Notes: a model not told the origin generated them from the letters alone. 64,000 nucleotides of DNA from Prorocentrum cordatum (GCA_963575745.1 CAUYUJ010000001.1:2108001-2172000), one strand, 5' to 3'; shown: positions 13,816 through 48,910, numbered from the stretch's first letter. Made by a program: numbers and translations.

Positions 13816-13827
13816 GTCGGAACCTAG

Positions 13828-24300: not shown

Positions 24301-25181
24301 CGGAAAACCAAGAACACCTCAGGAACACAGAAACAAAACAAAGAACTCAAAGGCATAATCCAGCAACAAAAACGAAGGTCAAATAAAGCAAACAAAACAA
24401 TAACGATTACACTATTTAGTCTACCCTTTCTCCTCCTCCTTCTTCTCCTCGTCCTCCTCCTCCTTCTCTTCCTCCTCCTCCTCCTCCCCCTCATCATCCT
24501 CATCCCCGGCCGCGTCTTACGCTCGTCACATCTTCCTCCTCCCCCCCCCGCCCTTCACCCCTCACCCCTTCCTCCTTCCTCCTCCTCCTCCTTCTCCTCC
24601 TCCTTCTCCTCCTCCCCCTCCCTCCCCCTCGCTTCCTTGCCCTGCTCCATGGAAGGGGCTCCGCGGCAAGCTCAAAGTTCAGTTCGTTGACGAACGTGCC
24701 GGTAGCGTGCCTGTAGCAAGGTGTCTTGTCGTATGTGAGGCGTTCCAGAAAGGGCCTCGCCTTGGAGGATTGCCGGAGTTGCCACCTCTTCCTCGGCGGG
24801 GGGCGGCGGAAGTACAGCAAGGGCGGCTCCGTCGGCAGAAGCCGGCGACGGTTCGGCGGAGGGCGGCGGAAGTCAAGCGTGCGCCCCCCAAGAAATGTCG
24901 TTTTGTTGGATGCGGTGTTTCCGGAATCGGCCGTGCACCTGCTGTGTCTCACGGCTGCTCCTCGGCCCTTCGCCCTCGCTGCGCCGCTCGAGGCCTCAGT
25001 GCCCCCCCCCCCGGGGCGGGCGGCGACTGCTCGGCCAGGCCCGGGCGGGGCGGCCACTGCGGCCGCAAGGCTGCGCCCGCGGCGGGCTGGCCTCCCCGGG
25101 CCCCGGCGGGGGTAGGTTTGCAGAGTGACTGCAGAGGGGGAGGAAGAGGTGTCGATACCGCTGCCTTGGCCTCGCTTTTCA

Positions 25182-25352
25182 CCACCCACCAAACCACCCC
25201 AACCCAACCCGAAGGCCCAAATTTATCCTCGATTTCCAGTGGGGGGGGGTCGGGGAACACTGAAAAAACACATGGAATCCGTCCCCCCCCCCAACCCGAA
25301 ATTCGACTCAAATTCGGGTCTTCGGGTTGGGTTGGGGTGGTCTGGTAGGTAG
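25182..25352. mobile_element. MITE with ~33-bp TIR, TCA on both sides
   Basis: CCACCCACCAAACCACCCCAACCCAACCCGAAG / CTTCGGGTTGGGTTGGGGTGGTCTGGTAGGTAG; copies at 37733-37893 and partial at 28516. Confidence 0.8.
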
Positions 25353-26879
25353 TCAGCCTTCGCCCTCACTGCCGGGGCCTCCTGGGAGGCGCTCGTCGCC
25401 ACGGCCGGAGTGGCCTCGGAGTGCTGGTCAGAACGCGCCCCGGGAGAGGTCCAGGGAGTCCAGGGCGTGGCGGTGTTGGTGTCTTGTGTTTTCCCCTGAT
25501 TCCGTTGCCCGATTGCCAGGAACACCCAGGCGCCGTGGGCACGCAGTTCCCACTCTTTCCTGGCCGCTGTTGCGCCTGTCGGCTATCTAATTCGCACCCG
25601 GTCTTGCCTAGCCGCTATTGCACTTGGTCTTTGTTGGTCGCGTTCGCATTCGTGGCGCATACAGTGTCATTGAATTCGTTGCTGCCTTGCACCTTACGGC
25701 TTCAGCCAGCAGCGCTGGACGGTAGATCGCAGGGGGGCATGGCATGACGATCCGCTAGTCCGTCGTGGACGCCTTGCCCATGTCACCATAGCGGTGTGCA
25801 GGGTGCAAGTTGGATTTTTGTCACGCTTCTCGTATCCCCACTGGCACATCCAGAAACGATGCCCGGGCGAGTTGCCTTGATCAGGGAAGCGCAGGAGCAT
25901 GCAGTGGAATAAAGAAGTTGGGCAGCCGTGATCTCTAGAAGGAGGAGGAGGAGGAGGGCGGAAGCGGAGGATGAGAAGGGTGAGCAGGGAGGAAGATGTG
26001 GAGGAAGAGCCAGAGGAGGAGAAGGAGAAGGAGGAGGAGCAGGAGCAGGATAATCAGAGCAATCAGAAGGAGCAGGAACTTGATGGAACACATTCCGACT
26101 CAACTTTGCTTGAATGTGGAGGAGGTGGAGGAGAAGTAGGACGGGGAATGGGAGGAGGACGAGGAGGAGGAGGAGGAGGAGGAGGTGGCAGGTGGGAGGA
26201 GGAGAAAAAGAAAGAGGAGGAGAAGGATGGGTTAGGAACAAGGCTACGACGACGACAGAAGTCAAGCATCAAGGTCCTCGCTGAACTTTCGGTCTCGGAG
26301 CTTTTTGGTGGCCTCTTCGAGCCATCGTGGGGTCCTCTCGAAGCCATTTTGGGAACCTTGGGAGTCTTCTTGGGCTATTGGGGCCCTCCTGGCGGCCATG
26401 GGGCTTTCTGGGGGCTTTCTGGCCACCATGGAGGACTTTCATCACAAAGGGGGGGCCCTCATTTAGCCCCCCTCCCTCCCCCCCGTCGGAGTCGGAAAAA
26501 AAACATCGCTTGGAGCTCTCGTTGGGCGCTCTTGGGCACTCCTGGGGCCGTCTTGGAGTCCCTGTGGGGCATCTTTGGGGCTCTCTTGGGCGACATTGTG
26601 GCCGCCCTGAGGCTTCAGAAGCCCATCGCAAGCGAAAATGCGAGAATCACCTAATTCATGTACAAAAAGGTTAACCAGCGCGCACCCCAAACAGTGAGGT
26701 ATTACACTGTGGAGGTGGCAGCAATGCTGCGCAAACTACGAGGTGTAAGCTATGCGGTGTAAGCTGAAGGTGAGAGCCGTTGAGGTTGAAGCTATGCGGT
26801 GTAAGTTTTGTGCACGCTATGCGGTGTAAGCTATGTGGTGTACGCTATATTGTGTACGCTATGTTATGTAAGCTATATC

Positions 26880-27869: not shown

Positions 27870-28145
27870 TTATCACTCGAAGGGTGGTCGTATAGGCAAT
27901 GGAAACTATGTCGTGTAAGCCCCGTTAGTAAGTCATGCGGTGTAAGATCCGCACACGTGGCGACCAGGAGGCGGCACGGGCGGTACAGTCGGGGCGCTGA
28001 ACAAGGAACCCTTTTCGTTGGGGAGGGGCTCCGTGTTCCTTCATTGTTTCGCAGCTTGCCTTGGGTGGTCCTCAGGTCTTCGATGGGGAATCGAAGTTCA
28101 ACTCATGGGAAAAAAGGGACCTCGTTCCTCCTTTAGGGTTCCTTA

Positions 28146-28333
28146 CAGTAGGTTTGCGTCGTGTCGACCAGCGGCGACCCCAGCGCGGGCGTTCCAGGTT
28201 GAACGCCGCCGGCGACCCAGAATCGATCGAGGTTGAACGATCGGACGTTGCGGCAGCGGCCGATCGTTCAAGGTTGAACGATCCCTGCGGTGTCAAAAAC
28301 CAACGCTGGGGTCGGCACGACACGAACCTGCCG
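28146..28333. mobile_element. 188-bp Tc1/mariner-type MITE, copy 2
   Basis: Near-identical to 5165-5352; TA on both sides. Confidence 0.85.
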
Positions 28334-30469
28334 TAGGCCAACTCCCCGACTGTAACGTGGCGCAGACTCGGCGGACACACACAGCGCACGGGGCGCCCGC
28401 GAGCGCCCACGCGGCGTCACGGGCGGCAACGTGGCGCAACCTCGGCGGAGCCACCCCACCAACGGGGCGCCCACGAGCGCCCCAGGGGCGGCGCGGGGCG
28501 GCAACGTGGAACTCACCACCCACCAAACCGCCCCAACCCAACCCGAAGGCTCAGATTTACCCTCGATTTCTAGTGGGGGGGGGTCCGGGAACATCGGAAA
28601 AACACATATGGAGCCCATATCCCCCCCAAGGGGCGGCGCGGGGCGGCAAGGCTCGGTCATCCCAGGGGCGGCGGGGCAGAGGGGGCGGTTATCCCGAGAC
28701 CTGGCCGATTGGATCACGACAGGTCGTGATATCCCGACCCGATTGGATCACGACAGGTCGTGATATCACGACAGGTCGGCCCCTGGTGATCACGATCCCG
28801 AGGGGGCGGTTATCCCGATGACACGACCAGGGGCCCGCGGGGATTGGCGCCCGCGGGATGAGCGCGAGGCTCGGTGGGCCCGTGAACGGAAGCAGTACCC
28901 CCTAGGTGCACGCATCGTTTGGGGCGCAAAGGGCTTCTGAGACGTGTCTGTCCCCCGGGGGCCTCCCGCGGAGGCTCCGTGCCCACCTTGGCTCCAGCCT
29001 GGCCCGAAGCCTCCCAAGGATGCCCTGAGAGGCCAACACCTTTTTTGAGTCGAATCGGTTGTTCCACGTGTTTTGGCTTTGGGCGAAGGGGGGGCCAATC
29101 ATAGCCCCCCCCCGTCGGAGGCCGAAGCATGGTTTCCTGGGGCGCTCCTGGGGTGCTGTTCGGAGGGCCGCCTTGGAGCCACCCTGGGGCCCCTCCTGGA
29201 GGCACTCCCGAACCATGCTGAAGCTTTCTTGAGCCGTCTTGGGCCATCTTGGCGCTGCTACGCGTCGCCCCCGCTCCCCCACCTTGTCCAAGCCCAGGGA
29301 GGGGGGGTCAGGCTCCGAATGGGAGTGCCAGAGGCTGTCTCGCTCACTTTCGCCCGCCATGCCACCATGCCAAGCAGTACCAGAGACTCAGCCCAGCCAG
29401 AGGTCGCCATCGGACGGATGGACAGCCAAACGCCAATGCGGCGCTTGCACCCGCAACAAGCTCGCACTGGTCTTGTGGAGTGGGGCAGCGGGACAGCGCG
29501 CAGCGGTCAAGTCACACCCTAGAAAACCCCATCAGTGGGTTTCCCTGGAGTTCTGGCAGAAGCCATGCCCGCCTTCCCTGGCTCACCCGCCGAAGTCGGC
29601 CCAGAACCGTGAACCTGGGGTCCCGGCCGCCCGCCGAGATCGACCCTGAACCCGGAACCCTCGAACCCGGCCGCTTGCGACATCGCCTTTGACGGGGGAA
29701 CCGGGGAACCCGGCCGCCGATCGAAATCGGCCCGAATTGTTCGCGTATTCTTTCAGCTTCCGCCAAGGCCCCTTGCTCGGACCCCTTCAGTGCAGCCGCT
29801 GATTCGGGCGTATATGCTTACCCCTCCGCCATCCGTATCCAAAGTCAACGCGAAATGCTCTCGAGAATTCCGCTCACGATCCAGATGTTGCAGCTACGTG
29901 CGTTCCATCGTGCTTTTTGACAGGGATGGTGGGGAGTGCCCTCGCGGTTCCTGATTGACTGCCGGTCGATTGGGAAAAGGGTTTAATAATATTGAAGCGG
30001 TGATGAACAATAAACCCCTCCCGAAGGCGGGGAAGCAGGGAATTGGAAGACCGAACTCACTAATATACCTGCTCCCAAATTGTTGGTGGGATGCTGGGCG
30101 CTGAGCACGGGGCCGATTTCCTCCCAGATGTCGAGGGTTCGCGATGGAGGTGGTGCGCCGTTGTTGTCGCACGCCAAGCTGTGCTTTTGCATTCGCCCAG
30201 CTTTGCGTGCCTCTTTCTGATCCTCCCAGGTGCGCTTTCCATCATGAACTCCCGCTCTCAGGGTGGCACAGGGCCTCGGACACGCGATCCATCTTGTCCA
30301 TGGCCCAATTTCTCCCTTAGGCCCACGGGGAACAAGTGGCACGCGCGCCTTGGCTCTTGCACCAAAGGAGCTGGGAGGGACAGGAGGCTTTCGCTCCCTT
30401 CCTCCAGGAGTTCCTTCCGTGGCCGTGGGGAGGGGAGGACGAACGACGAACGAACGAACGACGACGACG

Positions 30470-35149: not shown

Positions 35150-36260
35150 CGGGGGAGCGCCTTGTGGGGTCACTACGCGCGTGAAGGGTGAGCCGGAATG
35201 GGGCGGGGCCGCCATTGAGGCCTTCATTGGAGCTCCTTATGGGGCCACGTAGCGTGTGAGGGGTTTGCCGACATGTGTTGCGGGGGCGCATGCGGGCCGC
35301 GCCTCGGGGACCTTCGGTGGAGCTCCCTCTTATGGGGCCACGAAGCGTGTGAGCGGTGTACAAACATGGGTGGCAGGGACGCATACAGGCTGAGCAACTG
35401 GGGCCTTCGGCGGAGCTCCATGCGGGACCACGAAACGTGTGAGGAGTATGTCAAAATTTGTGGTGGGGACGCATGCGGGCTGCGCCGCTGGCACCTTCGG
35501 CGGACCTCCCTGTGGAGCCACGAAGCGTGTGAGGGGTGTGCCAAAATGGGTGGCGGGGACGCATGCGGGCTGCGCCACTTGGACCTTCGGTGGAGCTCTT
35601 ATGGGGCCACGAAGCGTGTGATGGGTGTGCCGAAATGGGTGGCGGGGACGCATGCGGGCTGCGCCGCTGGGACCTTGAGTAGAGCTCTTACGGGGCCACG
35701 AAACGTTTGATGGGTGTGCCGAAATTCGCGGCGGGGACGCATGCGGACTGCGCCACTGGGACCTTCGGTGGAGCTCTTCTGGGGCCACGAAACGGGTGAG
35801 GGGTTTGCAAAAAAGGATGGCGGAGACATTGTGGCTGCGCCGCTCCCCATGGGGCGACGAAGCGTGCGAGGGGTGTGCAGAAATTGATGGCGGGGACGCA
35901 TGCGGGCTGCGCCAGTGGGGCCTTCGGTGGAGCTCCATATGGGGCCACGAAACGTGTGAGGGATGTGCCCACATGGGCGGCAGGGGCGCATGCGGGCTGC
36001 GCCACTGGGGCCTTCGGCGGAGTTCCTTACAGGCGGTGGGTGCATCAGAATGGAAGGCGGGGGCGCATGCGGGCCGCGCCACTGGGACCTTCGGTGGAGC
36101 TCTTCTGGGGCCACGAAACGCGTGAGGGGCGTGCCGAAATGAGTGGCGGGGACGCACGCGGGCTGCGCCATTGGGACCTTCGGTGGAGCTCCTATGAAGC
36201 CGCGAAGCGTGTGAAGGGTGTACCGAAATGGGCGGCGGGGACGCATGCGGGCCGCGCGGC
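35150..36260 (-). repeat. ~88-bp minisatellite, inverted relative of 16770-19230
   Basis: CCTTCGGTGGAGCTC..TATGGGGCCACGAA units. Confidence 0.85.
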
Positions 36261-36374
36261 GGGGTTGAACGAAACGTGTGGGTGGGCGTACCAAAGGTCA
36301 AATTTCGGACTCGGTCCTGTCGTTTCCCCTTCAGACAGATTCGATTCAGTAGAAGGGGCATACATCTGTCTGCG

Positions 36375-36426
36375 TGGTGGCTGGCATCCGAAGTGGCCAG
36401 CCCAGATTACCGTAACAGCATGATTG
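36375..36426 (+). pseudogene. 52-bp diverged copy of an internal GH92 segment (GGWxPKWASPxYRNSMI)
   Basis: Matches 43582-43634 with substitutions and a 1-nt deletion. Confidence 0.85.
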
Positions 36427-36442
36427 ACAATCTTGTGGGCGT

Positions 36443-36463
36443 TCCGTAGCCATTTTGGCCAAG
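36443..36463 (+). other. Dinoflagellate spliced-leader relic upstream of GH92
   Basis: TCCGTAGCCATTTTGGC-CAAG: SL with one deletion, 44 nt before ATG 36508. Confidence 0.92.
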
Positions 36464-36507
36464 GGGCCAGGCGCCGCCGCGGTCGACCGTGACGGCCAGG
36501 CCCTCTT

Positions 36508-37581
36508 ATGCCATGGCTCCATGCAGGGGCGCCCTCTCTTTGGCCTCAGCTATTCGGAGCGTGGCTTCTTCGGGGCTGCCCACATGAAGCCGTGGCGTTC
36601 CCGGTGACCGAACCCGTGGATTGGGTCAACGTGTTGTCGGGCGCGGCGGGCGGCGAGCGCATCGGGCAGCACCACAGTGGGGGGAGCACGCTGCCGCTCG
36701 CTGCGCTGCCGTGGGGCTTCAACCACTGGGCGCCCCAGTCGAACAGCGACAAGACGAGCTGGTGGTTCGACGCCGACTCCGACACCTTCCGAGGCATCCG
36801 CTGCACGCACCAGCCGTCGCCTTGGATAGGTGACTACGGCTGGTTCCTCCTGCGGCCCTTCCAGGGCTCCCCGAAGGACGAGTGGGTGGGCTTCACCTCG
36901 TACCGCGCGGCAGGGGCGTTGCAGCCGCACTCGATCGACATCACCGCCGGGCCCTACGGGGTGCGCACCGAGCTGGTGCCCACGCAGCACGGCGCCGCTC
37001 TGCGGGTGACATTCCCGGACGTCGTGCCGGCGGACAAGCGGCGCGTCTGCGTGCTGGTGCCGCGCGGGCTCGCGAGGGACGAGGACGAAGCGCGCGCCGC
37101 CGAGGCTTCCGACAGGCCCACCGGCTCCTGCAGCGCGCAGTTTGGCGAGATCAGTTTGGTCTCGCGCAAGTTCGCACAAGGCGTGCCCCTGGGCTCCGAC
37201 TTTGCGCTCTACGCCTGGCTCGAGGCGGAGGGGCTGAACGCGGAGGAGCGGGAGGAGACGGACTGGTGCTTCGAGCGGGATGTACGCTACGTCAAAAAAG
37301 ACGGAGCGCTCACCATGAGGGGGCACCCGAAGAAGAAGGCGGGCAGCGCCCAGAAGTGCCAGGAGAGGTGTTTTCTCGCCCTGGGGTGCGAGAAGTTCTC
37401 TTATCTGGACGACGGGAGCTGCTACCTGCTCAACGAGCCGATGGTCCTGCAGAGGGCTGAGGGCGCCGTCTCCGGACCCGCCGACTGCGACGGGCAGGTG
37501 CAGCCGGTGGGCAGCCGGGAGTGCTGCTTCCTCGCCGGGGAGCGGACGCAGGTGGAGGTGCGGATCGGCACCTCGCTCATC
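36508..37581 (+). CDS. GH92 alpha-1,2-mannosidase, exon 1 (N-terminal domain with inserted PAN/Apple domain at 37264-37488)
   Basis: GSTLP..PWGFNHWAPQ, GIRCTHQPSPWIGDYG, ..RIGTSLI; the 3' boundary is inferred from protein continuity. Confidence 0.88.
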
Positions 37582-37732
37582 TCGAAGAACAAAGGGGCAT
37601 GAACATAATTGCTCGGAGTTCCGCGCGGATTTCTCGGATCTGGGCCCCGCCGCCTGGGCCCCTTGGCCACGCCTCCGGCGCCGCCCCTGGCGCGCTCCAC
37701 GCGCCAGGGAGGGGGTTCAGCCCGATGAATCA

Positions 37733-37893
37733 CCACCCACCAAACCACCCCAAGCCAACCCGAAGGCTCAGATTTACTCTCGATTTCCAGTGGGGGGGGT
37801 GTCGGGAAACATCGAAAAAACACATGTGGTACCCTTACCCCCCCAACCCGAAATTCGGGTCTTCGGGTTGGGTTGGGGTGGTCTGGTGGGTAG
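37733..37893. mobile_element. TCA-flanked MITE nested in GH92 intron 1
   Basis: Same family as 25182-25352. Confidence 0.8.
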
Positions 37894-38034
37894 TCAATGA
37901 AGAAATTCGCGTGGAGCTCCGAGAGTTTATTTCCCCCCCAGGCCTAATGGGGCTCCAGTTTTCGCCCCACCCACGTCTTCTTCTCCCGTCCCGTCCCGTC
38001 ACTTCCCCTTCTCCCGCTCCTCGTCCTTCTCGCG

Positions 38035-38050
38035 CGCACACGCATACACA

Positions 38051-38126
<76 letters not shown>

Positions 38127-38245
38127 TCATACACTTGCACACACACACACACACACACACATTATAGCCGTGCACACACAACACCAACGCACCATACACC
38201 CCAGACGTATGCATCAGGGCGCACACACATCACACACACACAAAC
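38035..38245. repeat. (CA)n microsatellite, followed by a ~90-bp tandem repeat to ~38640
   Basis: Direct reading. Confidence 0.85.
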
Positions 38246-38649
38246 AGAATACACTCATGCTTCGGGTCGGTCGTCCAAGGCATAGCAGGCATGGCACTGG
38301 CACTTTCGCGACACCAGAGGGGGTGCGCAGGGGGTGGTCCCTCACTACGGTCTCTATACGCGCCAATCTCTCAGGGGCCTAGCAAGCGTGCGATTCACGA
38401 CGCCCGAAGGGGGTACGTATAGGGTGGACCCTCCCCTCGATCTCTACACGTCCCAATAGCGCATGGCCAAGCAGGCGTGGCACTTTTTCGACAGTGGAGG
38501 GTGTGCAGCGTGTGGTTCTTCACCGCGGTCTCTACACGCGCCAATGTCGCAGGGCCAAGCAGGCGTGGCACGTTCTCGACACCAGACGGGGGTGCGCCGG
38601 GCGTGGTCCCTCACCGCGGTCTCTATTCGCGCCAGGCGGAGGTCGACGC

Positions 38650-41530
38650 AGGCCCTGACCTTCCTCGATGCGTCAACGAGTTCGATTCCATCGCCATTGA
38701 GCTGGTTAGTCACGAGGATCGCGTCTGGCACCAGGGGCATTTTCACGACCCCGATCGTCTTCCGGGAAAATCCGAGGACCCCGCGCGAGGTGTCAAGTGA
38801 CGATCACCTTGGCTTCCCAGGTGGGCAGGGCTCCGCGCGCCCCCCCTCGGGAACGGGGCCCAGCCGGGGCCGAGCGCGCCCGGGCCCGGTCGGCGCGAGA
38901 ACGGGCGCGAAGCTCGCCCGGGAGGTTGCGGCGGGACCAGATTCAGCGAGCCAGCGCGGCCATGGCACCTTCGACTCTTCGGAAGTGCGCGCCTGGGCAG
39001 TGGGTCTTGATGGGGGGCGAGTTATCGCGGGCCTCCTCCCGACGGGGCTCTGCGGGGGTTCGAGCGGGCGCTCGGCGTGGCCCCAGACTGGCGGCCCCCC
39101 GCGAGCGCGGCGCCGCGCGGGCGCCCGCGCGCCCGCGCCAGTGGAAGCGTTTTTCGGCCCAGGCGCGGCCCGCCAGTTCAGAGAAGATTCCAAGCGGCAG
39201 GGGCCGCAGCGGCGGGCGTCGTCTCGGAGGGCCTCTGCGGTCGACGCGGGGAGGGCGCCCGGGCCCAGCCTCTCCAGGCCGACGCGATTGGCATAGGCCC
39301 TAGGCCTTCTGGGCCAGCTCCGGAGGCCGAGGTCATTCCCCCCATGGGGCCCGCGTCTCATGTCGAGCCCCCGGCACCAGTCAGTCCGGGATCCGCTCGT
39401 CCCCTTTCGATTGCCGAAGAAGATGGCGTGTTCCTCCTCCTCCTCCTCCTCCTCCTCCTCCTCCTCCTCCTCCTCCTCCTCCTCCTCGTTTTGTTTTCCT
39501 CCTCCTCCTCCTCCTCCTCCTCCTCCTCCTCCTCCTCCTCTTCCACCTGGTCAGGGGTCAGGGGTCGAGGTCTGAGTCCGAGTCCTCGGCCGCCGGCAGT
39601 CTGGCGTTGCCCTATCCGACCGATTCCGCGTTTCACGATTGGCGGGTCTGCAGTCGCAAGACCCTGGTTCAGCCAGACGACGTGCCAGCGATTGCCCGAT
39701 GAAGTCGGGAAGGGTTGCGCTCGGCCCCCGGGCGCGAGCGATGTCGGGCGGGCCCGAGTCGGAGCCGAAAAGACCGCGCCCGGGGGGGGGGGGCCGGAGA
39801 TTCTTTTCACCGAGCCCCGCTCGCTCGGCGCGACCCTGCGGAAGGTGGCCGATATCGAGACCGGCGGACCTCGCCAGCCCGGAGCGCCCCGGGGGAGGCC
39901 CCCGCAGCTGCGCGGCGACCGCCGAGGGGGGGCGCAGTCCGAGCGACCGCCAGCCCCAGGCGCGCCGCTCTGGGCGACGGTGGATTCGGAGGGCGGCCTC
40001 CAGGCCGTCGCCGCGGGCAGCATCCCCACGGTAGGTTCGTGTCGTGTCGACCGGCGGCGACCCCGCCAGCGGCGTTCAACTTTGAACGCCGGCGGCGGCC
40101 CAGAATCGATCGATGTTGAACGATTGGACGTTGCGGAAACGGCCGATCGTTCAAGGTTGAACGATCCCCGCGGTGTCAAAAACCAACGCTGGGGTCGGCA
40201 CGACACGAACCTGCCGCAGGCGCTTCGCGGGCGAAGAAGGCCCCGGAGGCTCGGCCTCATCAGCGCCCAGCTCACGCAGCTCGGACTCGCGCGCCATCCG
40301 GCGCGGCTCGGACGCGACGGGCAGGCCGTCTCCAGAGGGGCGGGCCAAGTCCGACGCGCGGAAGCACCCCTAGTTCCAAAGCTGCGAAGGCGATTTCCCC
40401 CAAGGAGGCGGCGGCCGCGCGGTGGGCGGCGCCGGGGCGCATCATGAGCTCCAGGTGGTTCGCCGGTGGACACGGAGGGGACTTTCAAGTCTCCCGCCGC
40501 GCTGTCGCGGCGGCGCGTCCACGGTCGCCAGGGCCCGGGCACCGACCCCCCAGACCAGTCACGACGTTTTTCCCGGCGGCGATGAATTCACAAATGAGAT
40601 GCGACATCGCGGACGTCGGGAACGCGCCCCGTCAAAGTGGCAGGTCTGACCGGGGCATCTGCGCAATGCCCCCGGGCCCCCGCCCCCCGCGGGCAGTCTC
40701 ACCCAGCCTCTCGCGAACGCGCATGGCCTGCACGACGCGCCCTTCGCTGGGGAGGCGCACCGTCGCCGGGGAGCTGGTCGAGTCGGGGCCGTGTCGGCAT
40801 GTTCGGCATGGCCCTCGCGAGCAGAGCATCAGCGCGATCGCGCGGGAAGTCGACGACTTCTTTATGACGCCCAGAAGGGCAGCCGAGCGGAAGCGACTCG
40901 GGGAGAGTCTCGAGAGCGGGCTTCAGTTCGACATGGCCGAGATTGCCGCGAGGGGCTGGTGGGCTACGCGGGAAGGGCGTCGACACATTGTCGACCGAAG
41001 GTTCTTGTGGACATGGCGAGGTACAACTTAGAAGAGGCCGCCCCCCATGAGCATGATCCCCGGCAACTTTCTCGGCGGGGAGGAGATCCGCGCCCCGCGC
41101 CACCCTCGTCTACCGCCCGAACTGGGGAGGTCGCAGGCGTCGCCCAGAAGCGCGTGGAGTGGCTCGCATGCTGGCGCGCCCCGACTGGCGGCCCCCACCG
41201 CTCGGGGCGTGATGCGCGCGAGCGAGAGCTCGCCGGGCATCCGCTGGCGATCGCTTCTCGGGGGCTTGCGGCCTGGGCTTTGCACCGCGAGCGCGCGGCT
41301 CTCGCGACATATCCCGACGCCGGCGGCGCGGGGGCCGCTGCCGGGGTGCGCGGCGACGACGCCCTCCTGGCCGACCCCGCCCAAGGGGCGCGCGCGATCC
41401 CCGCCCCTCGCGCGGATCGGGTTCGAAAGCGCCCAGTGAACGCTCCGGTGAGCGGATGGCGCAGTTGCAGGCGCAAGAGAGGGGCCCATTTGCATTTCGG
41501 CCAGAGAAGCGCTCTCGCTTTCCGCGTCGG
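38650..41530 (+). mobile_element. Heavily decayed Ty1/copia-like pol relic inside GH92 intron 1
   Basis: Motifs in copia order across frames: RIMSSRW, DIADVGNAPRQ (~DV..AFLQ), NAHGLHDAP (~VYGL.DAP), REVDDF, TYPDAG, GWRSCRRKR (RNase H). No LTRs seen; boundaries approximate. Confidence 0.65.
40029..40216. mobile_element. 188-bp MITE, copy 3 (flanked CA/CA)
   Basis: Same length and sequence family as copies 1 and 2. Confidence 0.85.
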
Positions 41531-43192
41531 TGTCTGAGGTAGACTGTGCGCCTCATTGTGTCGTGACGTGGTTGTCCATGATGTTTCCAGACTGCTCGCG
41601 GGCTTCCAGCTTCTCGGTGCTGAGATCGCAGCGCACTCTGGATAGTGGCAGGGCCACTCGGTTGCAGTTCGTCGATGCCAGATCTTCGCACGATACTGCG
41701 ATGAAGGAAGGGGGCGCTTCTTCTCAAGATAAACGCACTGCACTAGAGTTAGCCATCGTGTCCGAGGGCCTCGCGAATGCCACAGGGTAGTGCGATGGCC
41801 CCCCCGCTCCAAGATGCCAGCGGGCCGGCCTGCTAATGGCGCATTGGCAAGTCGAACGCGGCGCTGTCCCAGATCTCGGCGCCCGGCAGGCTGGCGCTGG
41901 CGGAGGGGCCCGCAGAGGCGCAGGCCCGCCGCCAAACGTCCGAACGAAAACGGTCGATTTCACGCGGCGTCCCATAGGACGCTGGAAGCAGAGGAGTCTC
42001 GATGATTGGGGTCTCGAGTCGACGAGGCCAGCAGGATGCCTCGGCCTCTGCTCGCGTGCTCGCTCTCGTTAGTTCCCACATGTTGTTGTCTTGTTTATTT
42101 CTTTATGTGTTGTTACTCTCTCTCTCTCTCTCTCTGTCACTCTCTCCCTCTCTCTCTCTCTCTTTCTCTTCGTTTTTTTGCTCTCTCTCTCTCTCCTCCC
42201 TCATCTGGTCGTCGACTCGACTGGGCCAGAGCTGCCGAAACTACCAGACAGTTTGACGAACGTTCACATCGATATCGCTTCGGGCGCCCGATGTCCAATA
42301 CAGGCCTGGCGCGAATATAGTTTTTCCCGAAGCAGTGCATGCAGCATTAGAGGTTCTTACTTCGGCTAACCATCTCGGGGCCGCCGCCGCAAAATCGCCG
42401 CCGCGCCGCCCGTCGCCGCCTGTCGCCGTCGCCGCCCATCGCCGCCACCCCCGCCCGTCGCCGCCCGTCGCCGCCCGCGCCGCCCGTCGCCGCCTGTCGC
42501 CGTCGCCGCATCGCATCCAGTGCGCCGCATAGATTGCGTATCAATAGGGTGGTACTAGTACGAGTACTAGTAATCGCAGTCGCTGGCTACCACAAGTAGA
42601 GCAGTTCTGGCACGCACGTTACCTTAGTGGACTCTGGGCGCCATGGTTCAAGTCCGATATATATATATATATATATATATATATTACTGTCGGCCCCGCT
42701 GCCACAACTAGTCCCTGAACGCAAGGAGTGGCAGGCTGGCATACTGGCATTTCGTCGACACCACAAGTGGTGTGCACAGGGGTGGGCGCTACATCCGTCG
42801 CAGGCTCGCAAAGCGTTGCCTGCGTGGCACTTTCTCGACATCGCGGATGGTCCGCAGGGCGCGGTTGCCGTGGCCGTCGCACTCTCGCAACCAGTGGGCT
42901 TCATGTCGAAGAGCTGCGTACCGCCGCGCAGGAATGAATATGACAAGGGCGGAATGGGAGGGAACCAACATTGAAAAGGGAAGAGGGGAGCATTGAGGAT
43001 GTTTACGCACTGCTGCGCTGCACACGTTGAGACATTGCGTAGGTGTCGCCAAGATGCACCACACTATGTTTGAACGTTCGGGAAAGCGGGATACGACACA
43101 GGTCATGCACACACACACACACACGACATAAGATGAGCATGTGGGGCTCCTCGGTAACGACACGTTTATGCATGCATTATTCTTCGACCATT

Positions 43193-43839
43193 TCGTCAAC
43201 CCAGAGCTTCGCCGCGTTCATGCAGGAGGTGCACGGGCGGCCGTTCGAGGCCCTGGCGGCCGTGGCGAGGGACACCTGGAACTCTCAGCTGGCGCAGGTG
43301 GAGGTCGCTGACGCGGGGCCGAACGCCGCCTCGACGTCGCGGCGGCTCCGGATATTCTACACCTGCCTCTACCGAGCGCTGCTCTTCCCTCGCCGCCTGG
43401 ACGAGCAGACGGCGGAGGGCGTGTTCCACTGGAGCCCCTACGACGGGAGGGTCCACGACGGCATCGGGGTGACAGACAACGGTTTCTGGGACACGTTTCG
43501 GACGGTGTACCCGTTGCTGGCTTTGGCCTACCCCAGGCAGCTTGGCGAGCTCGTGCAGGGGTGGTTAAACGCCTACAAGTATGGCGGCTGGCTTCCGAAG
43601 TGGGCCAGCCCAGGCTACCGCAACAGTATGATTGGTACCTTTGCCGACGTTGTTGTGTCGGACGCGATACTCAAGCACATACCCGGTTTCGACACAGCCT
43701 TGGCGTGGGAGGCGATCCGGAAGGATTGCTACCAGTCAAGCGACCCGAACGACACTGCCAGGGGGAAGCATGGCCTTTCCTACTACGACAGTCTAGGTTT
43801 TGTCCCCGCGGACGTTGGTATCGCCGAGTCCTGCTCCAG
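43193..43839 (+). CDS. GH92 exon 2
   Basis: FYTCLYRALLFP, DNGFWDTFRTVYPLL, GGWLPKWASPG..MIG, ESCSR; ends at a GA donor; 5' boundary uncertain (43193 or 43205). Confidence 0.9.
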
Positions 43840-43966
43840 GATTTCGGAGGGGGACAACGGTACAGATCCACCTCGTTCCCCTCCCTCCCCTCCCCCAGAA
43901 AGGAGGAAGGCATTCTGAGGAGGGAGGGGGAAAGGAGGTGGATCTTTATACACGTTCGATGTCCAG

Positions 43967-44141
43967 GACTTTGGACTTTGCCTTTGCCGACGCCGCCTCG
44001 GCGGCAGCGGCGGACCAACTGGCGCACCCAGAGGATGCCCAGAGGCTGCGCGAGAGGAGCGCGCGCGCGCTGAAGGCGCTCTTCCGCGCGACAGGCGGCC
44101 TCATGGGACCCCTCGGCAAGGACGGCAATTTCTCGACCCAG
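43967..44141 (+). CDS. GH92 exon 3
   Basis: (R)TLDFAFAD...GLMGP..DGNF; flanked by GA-AG introns 43840-43966 and 44142-44309. Confidence 0.85.
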
Positions 44142-44309
44142 GAAGTCGGGGAACAGACAGCTGCACAAACATATAAACTTTCGCAGCCCCGCGCGCGGAT
44201 TTCTCGGATCGACACCGTGACCACCGTGGCGGCGCGCCGATCCCAGACACCCGCGCGGACCTCCCACAGCCGTTGTCTATATGTTTATGTAACTCCTGCT
44301 TCTTCGAAG

Positions 44310-45056
44310 GAGGGCAACACGTGGGGCAACTGCTTCATCGAGGGGTCTGCGTGGCATCACTCCTTCCCGCCGTTCAACCTGCCAGCGCTGCTCGAGCTGC
44401 ACGGTGGGCGAGGAGCACTGATGGCTCGACTGCGGGACCTGCTGTCGACGCCCGCCACCTTTCAGGTCGGGTCCTACAAGACCACGATACACGAAATGCG
44501 CGAGATGCGCATGCTCGGCATGGGGCAGTACGCGCACAACAACCAGCCGGTGCACCACGTGCTGTACCTCTTCTCCATGCTCGGCGACCATAACTCAACT
44601 GCGCAGCTCGTGCGGCAGGTGCTCTCCCGCGCGTACTCGACGAGCGGCTTCGTCGGCGACGAGGACAACGGTGAGATGGGCGCCTGGTTTGTCCTGAGTG
44701 CCCTCGGACTGTACGCGCCCGCAGTGGGAACCACCGACGAGTACGTCCTGGGCGCCGTGCCGCTGTTTCCAAAGACCGTCCTGCACAGCCTGGGCATCAC
44801 CATCGAGGCCCCGTCCGCCTCCCAGGAGGCGCCCGCCGTCGCCGAGGTCCTCTGGAGGTCGTCGCCTCTCACGGGGGCGTCGGGGGCATCGGTGCGCTAC
44901 CGATCCTTGCGGGCTGGTGGAACTATGCGCTGGGTATCTCCCGGCGATGCCAGGATCGGCCGCGCCGTCTCCAGGATGCGCGGCACGCTCGGCGAGGCAA
45001 TGAAGAGGGTGAGCCCTGGGATTGGTGAGAAGTCGCTGCCCCAGCGCGCCGACAGC
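44310..45056 (+). CDS. GH92 exon 4 (catalytic motifs)
   Basis: FIEGSAW, IHEMREM, QYAHNNQP, GDEDNGEMGAWFVLSALGLY; 3' boundary 45056, or 45008 if the GT donor is used. Confidence 0.9.
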
Positions 45057-45058
45057 AT

Positions 45059-45338
45059 TCGAGGAGGATGGAATTGCATACGTACACAGAAACTTTCGGA
45101 GTTCTGCGCGGCTTTCTCGGGTCGGCGCCGGCCCCCCCTCCCTGGCGCGCTCTGCGCGCCAGGGAGGGGGCCCCGCGCGAATCCGAGAAATCCGCGCGGC
45201 GTTTCGAAAGTCCACAACTATGCAGTTTCCTCTCCCGCCGATCGGCGGCGAGCCCAGGGGGGGAAGCTCCTCCTTCTCCTCCTCCTCCTCCTCCTCCTCC
45301 ACCTCCTCCTCCTCCTCCTCCTCCTCCTCCTCCTCCTC

Positions 45339-45369
<31 letters not shown>

Positions 45370-45780
45370 TCATACTCCTCATCCTCATCCTCGTCCTTCT
45401 TCTCCTCCTCTTCCTCCGGCAGAGGGGGTGGGCCTTCTCAGAAGGATCAGAAGGCCTCCGGCTTTCTGAGAAGCTATCGCGTCCCTCTCTGCAGACACGG
45501 GTGGCTTCCCAGAAGGCGCGATGGCTCCCGATAGGCCTCGCCACTTTCTGAGAAGGCCTGCCCCCTCCAAGATCCTTGTCGTTTGGCTTTCGGCTCGTAA
45601 CTTTTTGTTTCCTGCGGCCGTTCGAGAAGATCGTGGGCACCCCCAGAGCGTTCTCGGCGAGGCGCAGCCGCTGTAACGCATCCCGAGGCTGGAACACCAC
45701 CTAGAACGAACGAAAACAGCCCGAAGACCTATCGAACCCGAAGCCACTACATTTTCCCCCTGGTCTCGCCGCCGATCCGA
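45059..45780. mobile_element. TCGA...CCGA element forming GH92 intron 4, with nested MITE 45242-45775
   Basis: Direct repeat AGCAT at 45054-45058 and 45780-45784; nested TIR TCGGCGGCGAGCCCAGGGG / CCCCTGGTCTCGCCGCCGA flanked GCCGA/TCCGA. Confidence 0.8.
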
Positions 45781-45782
45781 GC

Positions 45783-45929
45783 ATGCCGCAGCCCGCCTCC
45801 TGGCAGCTGCCGGGTGCGGCGGCCGCCTGGCTCCCCTGGGCGCTCGGCGTGCTGCTCGCGGCGGGCACAGCGCACCGCTGCTGCACGGCGTGCGCGTGCT
45901 GCCCTGGCGCCGCAGACAAGGCCGAGTGA
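45783..45929 (+). CDS. GH92 exon 5: TM anchor and Cys-rich tail
   Basis: MPQPASWQLPGAAAAWLPWALGVLLAAGTAHRCCTACACCPGAADKAE*; in frame once the element plus one TSD copy is removed. Confidence 0.72.
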   Translation: MPQPASWQLPGAAAAWLPWALGVLLAAGTAHRCCTACACCPGAADKAE

Positions 45930-46034
45930 CACCTTGCCGCGGTGGGCGGCCGCGCCTTGTCGGCGACGAGAAACCAGTCGACCAGTCGATGCTGTCCCAA
46001 TCCATGCAGATCTCCGACGATGTGTGTCCTTCGA

Positions 46035-46056
46035 TCCGTAGCCACTTTGGCTCAAG
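46035..46056 (+). other. Dinoflagellate spliced-leader relic upstream of the EAL gene
   Basis: TCCGTAGCCACTTTGGCTCAAG (21/22), 26 nt before ATG 46083. Confidence 0.95.
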
Positions 46057-46082
46057 CCCCTGCCTGGCGTCTGGGGTGCAGG

Positions 46083-47357
46083 ATGTCTTTACTAAATCAG
46101 CAGCAGATGTTCGAGCTTGTGGCCGCTAGCTATCCAGACGTGTTGACCAGGAGTGTGTATCGACCTATGCAGCTGCCAAAGCCCCTCTTCGCAATGCCCC
46201 TGCAGGATAAGCAGGAGCTGTTCGTAGAGGCGCTCCAGGGGATGTTGCGAGATGCGAACAGAGGGAAGCCTCTTGTGGAGGTCGCGTACGATAATAACCA
46301 GTCAAGACTGTTTTCGTTCGGGCTGCAGCCAGTATGGGAGGCGCGCGAGAACAAGGAGCAGTCGAGGCTTGTCGGCCTGGAGAGCCTCCTGGCGCTGCAC
46401 ACCGGCACCTGGGGCGTCGGCCTCGTGGTGGACGTGCTCGAGAACCTGCTCGACTCCGACGTGGAGCTCTACCTGCAGTTCAAGGGCCTCGAGATCAAGG
46501 CGGCCGTGAGCGCCCTGGAGGTCTTCCCGAACCTGCCGTCCATCAGCGTGAACCTGCGGCCCTCGGAGTGGCTCCTGCTGGAGGTCCAGAGCCTGGTGAT
46601 CGACGCGACCCACTGCGCGCCGGGCCGGATCATCTTCGAGGTGACCGAGTACACGCAGGACGCCCACTTCTCCAGGTTCTTCGGGGAGCAGGGCCCGCTG
46701 CCGCATCGCCTGAAGGAGACGCTGCTGCCGGTGCTGCGCCGCATGAAGGAGGCGGGCGTGACGCTGCTCGCGGACGACCTGCTGCCTGCCAGCGTGTATC
46801 GCTTCGACTGCGAGGCGTCGCACAGGAATGGCCATCGCCTCGCGGACCACCACGCAACCGAGAGCAGCACAATGTTGTCGGCAGACTGGTCCGATGCGTT
46901 CGATGGCGTAAAGTTTGGCCTCGAGTGGATCGTCCACGCAATGAGCCTAGGAAAGCACAGTGGCGCGGACTATGCCGCAGTGCCCCTGTATGCCAAACAC
47001 GTAAAGGATAGTTCTACTTACGTCGCAGCAGTGACCGATAGCCCAGTCCCAGAAGAGGAAGTGGATAAGCGTGCTGCTCTTCGTGACCTTCAGGCGGCGG
47101 CAAAGGTGGAGTTGCAGGCTGTTCTGAAAGATGTCCAGGAACGTGCGTTCAAGCACTTGCCTGTTTTCGAGGCGACACTGCCACCCGCTGCGATCGTCGA
47201 ATGGGGCCTGGAGGGTGCCGCGAAGGAGCAGGGAGGCGTGTTTTTCGAGGCTCGATTTCCCCCCGCGTGGTTCTACGGCTCGGTACCTTCTTTCCCAGAA
47301 GCGCGGTTCCCAATGGTGTCCCGCTACAAAGTGCACGCATCATACCTTGAACAATAA
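46083..47357 (+). CDS. Intronless EAL-domain (c-di-GMP phosphodiesterase-like) protein, 424 aa
   Basis: LQPVW..VGLESLL, ISVNL, RIIFEVTE, LRRMKEAGVTLLADDL, FDGVKF, VFEA, EQGG appear in EAL order. Confidence 0.8.
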   Translation: MSLLNQQQMFELVAASYPDVLTRSVYRPMQLPKPLFAMPLQDKQELFVEALQGMLRDANRGKPLVEVAYDNNQSRLFSFGLQPVWEARENKEQSRLVGLESLLALHTGTWGVGLVVDVLENLLDSDVELYLQFKGLEIKAAVSALEVFPNLPSISVNLRPSEWLLLEVQSLVIDATHCAPGRIIFEVTEYTQDAHFSRFFGEQGPLPHRLKETLLPVLRRMKEAGVTLLADDLLPASVYRFDCEASHRNGHRLADHHATESSTMLSADWSDAFDGVKFGLEWIVHAMSLGKHSGADYAAVPLYAKHVKDSSTYVAAVTDSPVPEEEVDKRAALRDLQAAAKVELQAVLKDVQERAFKHLPVFEATLPPAAIVEWGLEGAAKEQGGVFFEARFPPAWFYGSVPSFPEARFPMVSRYKVHASYLEQ

Positions 47358-48910
47358 TTGTGAATCCCGTGTGGCAGGTGGTAGTTTATGCAAGCGTCGT
47401 TTGACGATTGCGTTTGGCTGTTGGCTCCCTTCTCATTGAACGCAGAGTGATCGAGTCCGGAGGAGCAGCATTCCTCCCAGCCTCTTCCTCTGAAACACAG
47501 GTACGTGTGGCCTCACAGCACCCAGCGTCAGTGTACCGACTGCCCAGGGTGCATCAGGTCGCTTGTGCTCGCAGCCTCGCTGTATGAGTGGTGATTCTGT
47601 CCAACCCGCCCGTTGTTCTTTGTCTGTAGTGCTCCACCATGTGGTATGCGATGGGCCGACGGCCCATACTGTGTTCTCTGAGCATGGTCAGTTCGGCACC
47701 GGCATGCTCCCACGTGAGAGCAGCTCGCCCGCGCAGGATGTTTCATCTGTTCTCGAAGCCGAGTGGAGAGAATCAGAGGAGCAAAAAGTAACGAGCCACC
47801 CCGAAATTGTGGATAAGAGTCAGGGGACACATGCGGGGTGGGTCGCGGGGTGTGTCGCGGGTGGGTCGCGGGTGGGTCGCCGGAGAGGACGATGACGACG
47901 AAAATATACAATTGTTTTGTTTCGAGCGATACATACCGAAAGTTCCTGCATCTGTTATCGAGTCTGGTACTGTTTGTTACTGTGGCCAGCCTGAGCTCGG
48001 CGCGCATGTGGATCAAACGCGATTACTCGGTTGGAGCTGGATACTAGTTTAGCACGTTCGATTATGTTCTATTCATACATGGCGTATTCCTGTGGCCAGG
48101 CTTTCGTCGGTTCGCATGTTGCGTTTGATAGGGCGCCGCTAATCGGTCGCTGCTGTGTTCTACTGTCATGAATTGTAATGGATGTTCACTGATAGTTTCT
48201 TCTCTTACACTCTAGTATGTTATGTTCTGTTCTGGATGGGCCGGCGTTACGTCGTGACGCCTGTCATGATTGATGCGTCTTCCAATCGGTCGGTTTTGGG
48301 CCTCTTCGTTACCGTGGTCAGCCTGACCTCGGCGAGCATGTCGCGCTTGATAGAACGTCGTGAATCGGTCGCTGGTGTTTCCTTTTTCCGTTATATTTAG
48401 CCATGTTCGATTCTGGACTATCCTCATGTATTGGGTTATTGTATGGTATGGTGTGTTGCCTTACGTGTTGTATACAATATATTGTCCTTCCGTGTCCTGT
48501 TACTTCCAATTTTATTGTATGACATTTCATTCGGCGGTATTATGCGGCCTTGTGGCTTCTGGTATGTCGCGTGACAGTATGTGATATTCGTGTGTGTTCG
48601 GGCACAGCATCTGCATTGTGTAACCATACTGTTCAATGCGATCTGGACATCACACTCAAACTTGCGTTATTACTGTCTCTTCTATGCTATGGTTTCGACT
48701 GTCTGGATTCACGCAGTGGCGAAGCGTCCCGGCGTGCCTATAGGCCTACCAAACAATGTTCTAATAACCGTTTGTGGTATCCACGAAAGGTTCTTAGAAC
48801 ATTTCTGGCTGGGACGGCCTTGTTTCAACACATCGGGCTTATGTTCTAAGAACAGTGTTTTTGTTTTTGGGGCATTTCTGGGTTCTAAGAACATTGGAAA
48901 GAGCGTGTTT

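Follow-up and report, generated by a model that had tools for sequence, protein, structure and literature searches.

A MITE-ended intron without canonical splice dinucleotides in a dinoflagellate GH92 gene is probably an Amoebophrya-type introner

Can a 5.6-kb intron leave a dinoflagellate transcript with its reading frame intact when no register of its joint offers an accepted splice dinucleotide? Intron 1 of a dinoflagellate gene of glycoside hydrolase family 92 (GH92, alpha-mannosidase-like) raises this question. The gene occupies positions 36508-45929 on the forward strand of the 64,000-nucleotide stretch of DNA that was analyzed (hereafter, the window) and consists of five exons and four introns (Table 1). 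Its spliced coding sequence of 2,793 nt (67.6% GC) is in frame and stays open across all four joints down to the stop at 45927. Membership in GH92 was assigned from Pfam domain matches only, with both the N-terminal domain (PF17678, exon 1, E 1.8e-19) and the catalytic domain (PF07971, E 9e-46 and 1.8e-46 on consecutive exons) detected; exon 1 also contains a weak PAN/Apple insert whose PAN_1 match (E 5e-4) is under its Pfam cut-off. The closest named proteins are from P. cordatum (59% over 851 positions) and then from Symbiodiniaceae, while a PDB sequence search with the 1338-aa ORF gave no match. The window is otherwise gene-poor, rich in repeats and 61% GC: a Pfam scan of 98 further ORFs of 170 aa or longer gave no match at E <= 1e-4.

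Table 1. Coordinates of the features of the GH92 locus, counted from the first letter of the window.
Feature	Position	Strand	Details and basis
Relic DinoSL	36443-36463	+	45 nt upstream of GH92 ATG; 22-nt DinoSL minus one base
GH92 exon 1	36508-37577 (end may slide to 37580)	+	ATG to joint; contig cover 36454-37577
Intron 1	37578-43188 (equivalent registers up to 37581-43191)	+	5,611 nt; transcript contigs
Direct repeat CAT	37578-37580 (5' copy), 43189-43191 (3' copy)	+	One copy kept in transcript
MITE family A left arm	37582-37725	+	TIR TCGAAGAACAA at 37582-37592; 20-nt core at 37621-37640, 0 mismatches; alignment
Repeat family B	37730-37897	+	Interrupts MITE in intron 1; copies at 25179-25355 and 28513-28629; RNA-run depth 100-420
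Repeat family C	40028-40221	+	Nested in intron 1; copies at 5164-5352 and 28145-28338, ~90% identical
MITE family A right arm	43140-43187	+	Outer ~45 nt kept; TIR TTATTCTTCGA at 43177-43187; alignment
GH92 exon 2	43189-43834	+	Catalytic domain start; PF07971, E 9e-46; contigs
Intron 2	43835-43961	+	127 nt; palindromic element; boundary repeat TCCAGGA, 7 nt; joint in all 4 runs
GH92 exon 3	43962-44139	+	Pfam, transcript contigs
Intron 3	44140-44307	+	168 nt; complete family A hairpin MITE at 44146-44307 (162 nt); boundary repeat AGGA, 4 nt; joint in all 4 runs
GH92 exon 4	44308-45056	+	End 45053 in X14, 45056 in X1 and X2; Pfam, contigs
Intron 4	45057-45779	+	723 or 726 nt; family A MITE from 45059 to ~45256, then simple repeats
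GH92 exon 5	45780-45929	+	Hydrophobic C-terminal stretch; stop TGA 45927-45929

Assembled transcript contigs from three studies join exon 1 to exon 2 at 37577->43189, with a slide of 0-3 bases over the CAT common to both sides. One contig bridges this joint in each of the runs X1, X2, and X14, with a shorter side of 193-255 letters; the X1 contig ends within exon 2, and those of X14 and X2 additionally lack introns 2-4 and match the window's exons with no differences across ~2 kb. The four registers of the joint read CA..AC, AT..CC, TC..CA, and CT..AT, and none of them has a GT, GC, or GA donor or an AG acceptor, in keeping with an earlier note on this DNA that had seen no AG acceptor in any register. 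The same note had placed the joint within CAT(C/T)TCG. Both versions of this motif are present (CATCTCG at 37578-37584 and CATTTCG at 43189-43195), but the contigs carry the T of 43193 and lack the C of 37581, so the cut lies in or beside CAT and outside the TCG half; the predicted junction read was accordingly found except for one base (T at 43193). U12-type AT-AC identity was rejected for intron 1 since the sole AT register ends in CC, as was the U2-type identity of dinoflagellates (GT, GC, or GA donor with AG acceptor), which fits no register of the observed joint.

One point against reading the joint as a splice is that the three runs with bridging contigs are recorded as 'RNA?' or '?' and that the contig of X6, the sole run recorded as polyA RNA, starts at 43214, short of the intron 1 joint; the joints of introns 2 and 3 are present in X6 too. 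In all runs with strong matches to the gene, the share of sampled words is ~0.80, compared to a wholly exonic share of 0.795, which indicates that these runs contain spliced RNA, without genomic DNA. A 30-letter loose end before 36639 in X1, X2, and X14 had no match in the window with up to three mismatches allowed. Exon 1 has variants at 36903 and 37155 in X1 and X6, from which it follows that more than one allele or strain exists.

The observed joint restores the usual GH92 spacing, as the earlier note had expected of a protein-restoring joint: of the 79 aligned homologs that reach 780 aa or more (MAFFT), 77 have the same spacing, the exceptions being P0041 and the poorly aligned P0100. P0041 is an annotated P. 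cordatum homolog, and the 12 residues missing from it are exactly those lost here if canonical splicing is forced. The gap at the same place in this P. cordatum model hints at an older intron at the position, which counts against an origin of intron 1 after retroposition.

Canonical splicing would offer another account, in which the main isoform uses accepted dinucleotides and the observed joint is minor or artefactual. GT, GC, and GA donors with AG acceptors make up the accepted dinoflagellate set (PMC11453091 and PMC10666404, both available in part), and two such alternatives are in frame. One, GT(37558-59)-AG(43203-04), does delete the 12 residues VRIGTSLISSTQ, as had been stated; the other, GC(37597)-AG(43204), adds one residue and had been missed by the earlier note. 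Neither joint, however, occurs in the contigs of the four runs, and all three bridging contigs use 37577->43189, leaving the proposed tolerance of a 12-aa loss without a single transcript. The GT-AG form would also remove a segment found in 77 of the 79 homologs. We therefore regard canonical splicing at intron 1 as very improbable.

On either side, intron 1 ends in one arm of a MITE able to form a hairpin, termed family A, whose element ends have the form TCGRRG...CYYCGA. The earlier description of these ends as inverted repeats holds: TCGAAGAACAA and TTATTCTTCGA form eight perfect pairs, one mismatch, and two further pairs, and a perfect inverted repeat of at least 8 nt was found between the two 30-mers in only 1.1% of 3000 random pairs from the window. 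The ends could form an imperfect helix (37581-37617 with 43150-43188; predicted duplex energy -23.0 kcal/mol), and this terminal helix would need to close over 5.6 kb. The duplex energy is better than that of mononucleotide shuffles, of which 6 of 500 are as low, but it is unremarkable for the GC-rich window, in which 17% of random pairs are equally stable. For this reason, the case for inverted ends is based on the exact 8-nt repeat and on MITE homology, and duplex energy is set aside.

The homology extends well beyond intron 1. The 20-nt core of family A has seven matches in the window, compared to 0.01 expected, and nine arms can be aligned from introns 1, 3, and 4 and two further window copies, one of which lies at ~3205-3365, outside any recognized gene. 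With its TIRs, its small, noncoding elements, and its several copies scattered over the window, family A has the features of MITEs. Among nine metagenome loci, three contain related copies and the other six have the 20-mer alone in common, as do two loci in viral contigs. A possible TA flank is seen in the MITE copy near 3200 and in L004. The direct repeats at the intron boundaries are 3-7 nt long and lie 0-2 nt from the inverted-repeat ends (offsets 1/1, 2/2, and 2/0 nt), and this variation in both offset and length, a point against the introner reading, suggests that they may not be clean target-site duplications.

Between its MITE arms, intron 1 holds nested repeats totaling 5.4 kb, along with microsatellites, and the right arm of the MITE is broken. 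MITEs had been noted in the intron before, and they are present together with other repeats, including families B and C (Table 1). A copia relic had also been proposed, but it is not supported: the 58 ORFs of 70 aa or longer in the intron all stay short of the Pfam cut-offs, with neither a reverse transcriptase nor an integrase among them, although shorter fragments might still harbor a relic in advanced decay. Such a repeat-rich region could in principle have led to misplacement of 5.6 kb into the gene during genome assembly. Two observations make this artefact barely credible: each end of the insert is an arm of the MITE family from which introns 3 and 4 are also formed, and several unique stretches of intron 1 are covered by RNA contigs of low depth.

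The remaining introns of the gene place intron 1 in context. The boundaries of introns 2 and 3 follow the AG|GA...AG|G pattern that is usual in dinoflagellates, with GA..AG registers at 43840-43966 (shift +5) and 44142-44309 (shift +2), respectively. Each folds as a single hairpin, intron 2 at -73.1 kcal/mol (z -4.0, 0 of 200 shuffles as good) and intron 3 at -66.3 kcal/mol (z -2.7, 4 of 200 shuffles as good), the latter with its stem base at the element ends and with family A core matches at 44191 (+) and 44239 (-). Intron 4 also has family A core matches, at 45104 (+) and 45180 (-), and its joints are 45053->45780 in X14 and 45056->45780 in X1 and X2, so that its cuts are 3 nt apart in different runs. 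Its boundary repeat is 5 (or 1) nt, and neither form has a register that combines a GT, GC, or GA donor with an AG acceptor. The TCGRRG motif starts 4 nt downstream of the 5' cut in introns 2 and 3; in intron 1 this spacing would correspond to a cut at register 0, and in intron 4 to one at register +1. New in this analysis are thus the family A MITE at the ends of intron 1, in intron 3, and in the 5' part of intron 4, the non-canonical nature of intron 4, and a relic spliced leader (DinoSL) upstream of the gene.

The relic DinoSL bears on how the introns arose. It includes an exact 16-mer at 36444-36459, with two matches in the window compared to 0.07 expected. Under the retrogene criterion for dinoflagellates (Slamovits and Keeling 2008; Song 2017), an exact match of at least 9 nt to the DinoSL sequence lies no more than 500 bp upstream of an ORF (PMC5585692, available in part), and the relic here is such a match. 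The gene is accordingly taken to be a retrogene, and its introns were then probably gained through MITE insertion after retroposition, although parental introns are kept in some retrogenes according to the available part of Song et al. 2017 (PMC5585692).

Taken together, these findings lead us to the reading, to which we give a probability of about 70%, that intron 1 is a MITE-derived introner of the Amoebophrya type that resides in a high-GC core dinoflagellate and is absent precisely from the mRNA. The splicing of a non-canonical, Amoebophrya-introner kind suggested by the earlier note is thus borne out by contigs with a non-GT-AG joint, and guidance by RNA structure, the other part of that suggestion, is inferred, pairing of the ends being possible. 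In the proposed sequence of events, a small palindromic transposon (TCGRRG...CYYCGA) would have entered coding sequence and later grown to 5.6 kb as further repeats nested within it, and absence of the whole insert plus one CAT copy from the mRNA restores the reading frame exactly. Removal may be carried out by a spliceosome whose dinucleotide requirements are relaxed and that reads features borne by the element, for which the conserved TCGRRG is a candidate. Pairing of the inverted ends may assist by bringing the cut sites to within 1-4 nt of one helix base.

A transcript without the insert could also come from a copy or allele that never received it, in which case the joint would be the pre-insertion sequence and the window copy would be misprocessed at intron 1. 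Genes of dinoflagellates often occur in many copies and have often been retroposed, and this one has a relic DinoSL; an insertion leaves a direct repeat flanking an inverted repeat, as is found here; the exon 1 variants in X1 and X6 show more than one allele or strain; and the contigs are compatible with a DNA copy that is identical but free of the insertion. However, introns 2-4 are missing as well from the bridging contigs of X14 and X2, and introns 2 and 3 have the standard AG|GA...AG|G boundary. The same contigs show no differences over ~2 kb, although the age of intron 1 has sufficed for it to acquire its nested repeats and a broken right arm. In addition, the spliced ORF of the window copy is intact to its stop, and direct repeats of 3, 4, and 5 nt set off from the element ends within one MITE family fit a fixed target-site duplication poorly. 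An empty-site origin of the contigs is therefore unlikely in our estimation.

Excision without the spliceosome is a further alternative, as proposed for the nonconventional introns of euglenids, in which ends are paired, boundaries carry repeats, and the excised RNA is circular. In the part of the euglenid work available to us (PMC11282704), non-canonical borders, inverted repeats a few nucleotides inside the ends, repeats resembling target-site duplications, and variable length are described, and intron 1 is alike in these respects; the 3-nt shift in the cut position of intron 4 would also suit such a mechanism. In contrast, the CAG/CTG pairing positions given in that source are missing from intron 1, and the DinoSL relics and protein relatives of this gene point to a dinoflagellate rather than a euglenid. 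Intron 3, which derives from the same MITE family, has ordinary GA-AG boundaries, and one machinery for all four introns is simpler. Amoebophrya, which has the same kind of intron, contains nearly all spliceosome proteins (Farhat et al.; PMC7789003, available in part). For these reasons, we consider non-spliceosomal excision improbable and retain the reading of a MITE-derived introner removed by a relaxed spliceosome.

Intron 1 resembles the Amoebophrya introner elements (Farhat et al. 2021) in several ways. As described in the accessible part of that paper (PMC7789003), those elements have RNA support for boundaries other than GT-AG, an inverted repeat that links their two ends (8-20 nt long and within ~30 nt of them), and a direct repeat of 3-5 nt across the boundary at variable offset (CAT in intron 1); they belong to repeated MITE-like families, which for intron 1 was judged within the 64-kb window; and their hairpin would join up the exon ends, as predicted pairing would for intron 1. 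The differences, set against the same part of the source, are that the inverted repeat starts with TTA (A25) or TAT (A120) in Amoebophrya and with TCG here, and that mean introner length is 120-240 nt there, whereas intron 1 has reached 5.6 kb through nested insertions. Family A also gives rise to ordinary GA-AG introns in the same gene, unlike Amoebophrya introners, and the host on present evidence is not Amoebophrya, with its nearest proteins in Prorocentrum and Symbiodiniaceae and a gene-poor, repeat-rich window of 61% GC.

Comparison with introns of core dinoflagellates gives a similarly mixed picture. IRIB introns, named for their identical repeated intron boundaries (Mendez et al. 2015, PMC5032977), carry an identical repeat of 2-11 bp at both ends that appears once in the mRNA, and intron 1 does the same with its 3-nt repeat. 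Introns 2 and 3 are classic examples, their repeats (7 and 4 nt, respectively) both containing AGG. The IRIB model, however, calls for AG|G at both sites, and the CAT repeat of intron 1 gives no AG in any register. Introners of Prorocentrum cordatum and those of Symbiodinium and Polarella (Dougan et al. 2023, PMC10666404; Gozashti et al. 2022, PMC9860276; Roy et al. 2023, as cited in reviews) are like intron 1 in their simple inverted and short direct repeats and, as here, are TIR/TSD elements that create introns in high-GC dinoflagellate genomes with long introns. These surveys used models restricted to GT/GC/GA-AG (PMC10666404, in its available part) or derived splice sites from the element plus its TSD, and the intron 1 boundary has neither. 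Among the papers covered by our literature search, none describes, for Prorocentrum or any other core dinoflagellate, introns that are supported by RNA and have no GT, GC, or GA donor paired with an AG acceptor.

These findings bear first on annotation. According to the available part of PMC10666404, gene-prediction pipelines for dinoflagellates allow GT, GC, and GA donors and AG acceptors alone, and an intron of this kind forces them into a wrong model; the closest named P. cordatum annotation, which is without the same 12 residues, bears on such errors. They also provide a compact and datable case of intron gain from transposons, in which a gene that was once probably intron-free now has four introns made of hairpin elements, three of them from one family. 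As one MITE family has yielded, in the same gene, both GA-AG introns and introns without recognizable dinucleotides, the contrast within family A makes it testable whether dinoflagellate splicing reads dinucleotides, element sequence, or the helix. A broader and more tentative possibility, which we think somewhat less likely than even, is that a single MITE family acts as a self-defining intron in a large-genome, high-GC core dinoflagellate (Prorocentrum-like), being inserted after retroposition and precisely removed with or without GT/GC/GA and AG flanks, with cuts set by element sequence and terminal hairpin. If so, splicing of the Amoebophrya type, independent of end dinucleotides, would be a general dinoflagellate capacity, and such introns would have been systematically missed or mis-modeled in published dinoflagellate annotations.

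Public sequencing runs were queried with the exon-rich stretch 43190-44950 of the glycoside hydrolase family 92 (GH92) gene, and 24 runs were listed. All or part of the stretch was present in 19 of these, with at least half of the sampled words found in 13. As these 13 runs returned 0.75-0.80 of the sampled words, a value close to the fraction of the stretch's 31-mers that lie wholly in exons (0.795), they carry spliced RNA rather than genomic DNA. Assembled contigs of four runs from four studies were placed on 35500-47500; X6 is polyA RNA on record, and the kind of run is not on record for X1, X2 and X14.

The join from 37577 to 43189, which skips 5,611 bases, is carried by a single contig in each of X1, X2 and X14, with 193-255 letters on the shorter side and three letters (CAT) that fit either side. 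An earlier note, made from the sequence alone, had proposed non-canonical splicing here as one option, a GT(37558)-AG(43204) splice as the other, and junction reads as the check; the contigs agree with the former. Neither the GT-AG joint nor a GC(37597)-AG(43204) joint, which is in frame and was not in the note, is present in contigs of any of the four runs. Past the joint, the contigs follow the window from 43189 and have the T of 43193, which locates the cut in or beside CAT; the note's joint within CAT(C/T)TCG thus holds for the CAT part and fails for the TCG half. Four registers are possible (CA..AC, AT..CC, TC..CA and CT..AT), none with an AG acceptor, as the note had claimed. The MITE element and one repeat copy are precisely absent from transcripts. 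Separately, high-depth contigs (30-106) join 39119-39121 to 40405 or 43994 with 5-20 other letters between; these are probably repeat or low-complexity matches originating elsewhere in the genome.

By alignment, the ends of intron 1 are the two arms of one palindromic MITE family, a hairpin element with ends TCGRRG...CYYCGA. The note's CAT motifs, GT, AG and inverted ends were all found (see table), and its mention of MITEs in the intron holds. The 20-nt core of the family has seven matches in the window, with 0.01 expected. Between the arms, unique sequence lies alongside the repeats listed, and no retrotransposon domain was found across 58 ORFs of at least 70 aa in the intron, leaving the note's "copia relic" unsupported. 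A potential helix between 37581-37617 and 43150-43188 (-23.0 kcal/mol) would put both cuts within 1-4 nt of its base; its energy is unexceptional in this GC-rich window, where 17% of random pairs are equally stable, and the exact 8-nt inverted repeat is rarer (1.1% of random pairs). Intron 1 combines non-canonical ends with MITE ancestry.

Features of the GH92 gene, its introns and its surroundings
Feature	Position	Strand	Details
GH92 gene	about 36.4-46.0 kb	+	Pfam domains on ORFs
First long ORF, GH92 N-terminal domain	36493-37599	+	PF17678, E 1.8e-19; PAN/Apple match weak
Catalytic domain	ORFs from 43190 onward		PF07971, E about 1e-46
GT; AG	37558; 43203-04	+	
Boundary motif CATCTCG	37578-84	+	
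Boundary motif CATTTCG	43189-95	+	
Inverted end, left	37582-92		TCGAAGAACAA
Inverted end, right	43177-87		TTATTCTTCGA
Left MITE arm	37582 to about 37725		matches the family along its whole length, 20-nt core included
Right MITE arm	about 43140-43187		only outer ~45 nt retained
Another repeat family	37730-37897		between arms
CA microsatellite			between arms of intron 1
~89-nt tandem array	38298-38653		between arms
Third repeat family	40028-40221		between arms
Intron 2, 127 nt	43835-43961		different palindromic element, similar TCGGAG...GTTCGA ends; z -4.0
Intron 3, 168 nt	44140-44307		complete family copy; one long hairpin, base = element ends
Intron 4, 5' 200 nt			another family copy
Further family copies	near 3205-3365 and 21949		
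Relic DinoSL	36443-63		45 nt upstream of GH92 ATG; exact 16-mer, one base missing overall
Second relic DinoSL	46035-56	+	1 mismatch in 22; 27 nt upstream of next gene's ATG
Next gene downstream	46083-47354	+	424-aa product; EAL-domain match weak, E 0.007, below cut-off

When the exons are joined at the contig joints, the frame is open across all four joints to a TGA stop at 45927-29, giving a CDS of 2,793 nt from the ATG at 36508. The models were aligned with 79 homologs of at least 780 aa, out of 120 matches listed. With the contig joint, every one of the 12 columns of VRIGTSLISSTQ is occupied and no residue is inserted, an arrangement shared by 77 of the 79 homologs; the GH92 spacing that the note had described is thus restored. 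In the same alignment, the GT-AG model loses those 12 residues and the GC-AG model gains one. Only two homologs differ: P0100, whose alignment is poor, and P0041, an annotated Prorocentrum cordatum protein without exactly this segment. P0041 is the closest of seven homologs compared full-length (59% over 851 positions) and has a second gap shortly after the intron 2 position. With this gap exactly at VRIGTSLISSTQ, its gene model probably suffers from the same kind of intron, and mis-splicing of the published model at non-canonical introns is probable. Within GH92 exon 1, other contigs of X1, X2 and X14 match the window only over about 36639-36709, with 255 unlike letters before 36639 (all three runs) and behind 36709 (X14). 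The 30-letter consensus preceding 36639 has no match anywhere in the window, and these contigs derive either from the transcript of a GH92 paralog or from an alternative exon at the 5' end.

The contigs of X14 and X2 also skip from 43834 to 43962, from 44139 to 44308, and from 45053 or 45056 to 45780, and the X6 contig, which begins at 43214, short of the first joint, contains the joints of introns 2 and 3. The boundary repeats of these two introns, 7 and 4 nt long, include AGG, and one register each reads GA..AG, then G, in line with the identical-repeated-intron-boundary pattern of core dinoflagellates (PMC5032977). For intron 1, with its CAT repeat, and both forms of intron 4, no register pairs a GT, GC or GA donor with an AG acceptor, so that two of the four introns are non-canonical even for dinoflagellates. 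In the GA register of introns 2 and 3, the 5' cut lies 4 nt upstream of the element's TCGRRG; judged by this sequence pattern, the same spacing would select the CA..AC register (register 0) for intron 1 and GC..GA for intron 4. The 5' cut of intron 4 differs by 3 nt between X14 (45053) and X1 and X2 (45056), adding or dropping one Ser codon; the cause is alternative splicing or else a difference between strains in an AGCAGC repeat.

The main rival explanation, that an identical insertion-free gene copy supplied the transcripts, is disfavoured. The X14 and X2 contigs show 0 differences from the window exons over about 2 kb, whereas the insertion is old and decayed; moreover, introns 2 and 3 show the standard splice pattern, and the boundary repeats do not behave as fixed target-site duplications. 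Excision of intron 1 would most likely be the work of a spliceosome that accepts whatever dinucleotides stand at the intron ends and may, by analogy with Amoebophrya, be cued by element sequence and the terminal helix, as Farhat et al. proposed for that organism (PMC7789003).

Intron 3 folds at -66.3 kcal/mol (z -2.7). Elsewhere, among loci with the 20-nt core, three of nine from metagenomes and neither of the two viral ones contain true relatives of the family in which both arms are present. The depth of RNA contigs reaches 100-420 over 37505-37905 and 27-65 over 45124-45524, compared with 5-16 over exons, and this high depth over the MITE and the 37730-37897 repeat family indicates that numerous other transcripts of these organisms contain the elements. 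A 786-nt metagenome contig (L008), with the right arm of the family, a terminal run of A and a stretch at 225-243 resembling the 22-nt dinoflagellate spliced leader (DinoSL), looks like a transcript of a dinoflagellate in which the element occupies an untranslated region.

DinoSL relics, an accepted mark of retroposed genes (PMC5585692), precede both the GH92 gene and the next gene, where RNA contigs begin at 46040-46045 and span the ORF with no joint. Because a gene rebuilt from processed mRNA should begin intronless, all four hairpin-element introns were probably gained by insertion after retroposition, with the caveats that some retrogenes keep parental introns (PMC5585692) and that the P0041 gap hints at an intron at the same position in a 59% identical relative. 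Close to these two retrogenes, a lower-GC stretch (49-52%) holds an uninterrupted 1338-aa ORF (9814-13827, minus strand) with sub-threshold Exo_endo_phos (aa 170-236, E 0.067) and RVT_1 (aa 754-986, E 0.0077) matches, in the order expected of a LINE ORF2; a PDB sequence search gave no match, and the ORF may be an intact non-LTR retrotransposon. At E <= 1e-4, Pfam matched none of the 98 ORFs of at least 170 aa outside the GH92 gene in the window.

The named relatives of the GH92 protein among the matches listed are all dinoflagellates (Effrenium, Durusdinium, Breviolum, Symbiodinium, Prorocentrum, Pyrodinium and Alexandrium). GC content is 61% in the window and 67.6% in the CDS, and 59.7% and 65.9% in the P. 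cordatum genome and its CDS (PMC10666404); the window fits a large, high-GC genome like that of P. cordatum and does not fit the compact Amoebophrya genomes. In every sequence feature, intron 1 fits the way in which Amoebophrya introner elements are operationally defined, and it departs from the core-dinoflagellate boundary-repeat model in lacking AG followed by G. Earlier work reported introner elements from P. cordatum, on gene models limited to GT/GC/GA donors and AG acceptors (PMC10666404). Leaving aside Roy et al. 2023 and the PMC10666404 supplements, our literature searches turned up no account of RNA-supported introns outside GT/GC/GA-AG in core dinoflagellates. The case of intron 1 has a moderate bearing on intron evolution and is of practical use for dinoflagellate annotation.
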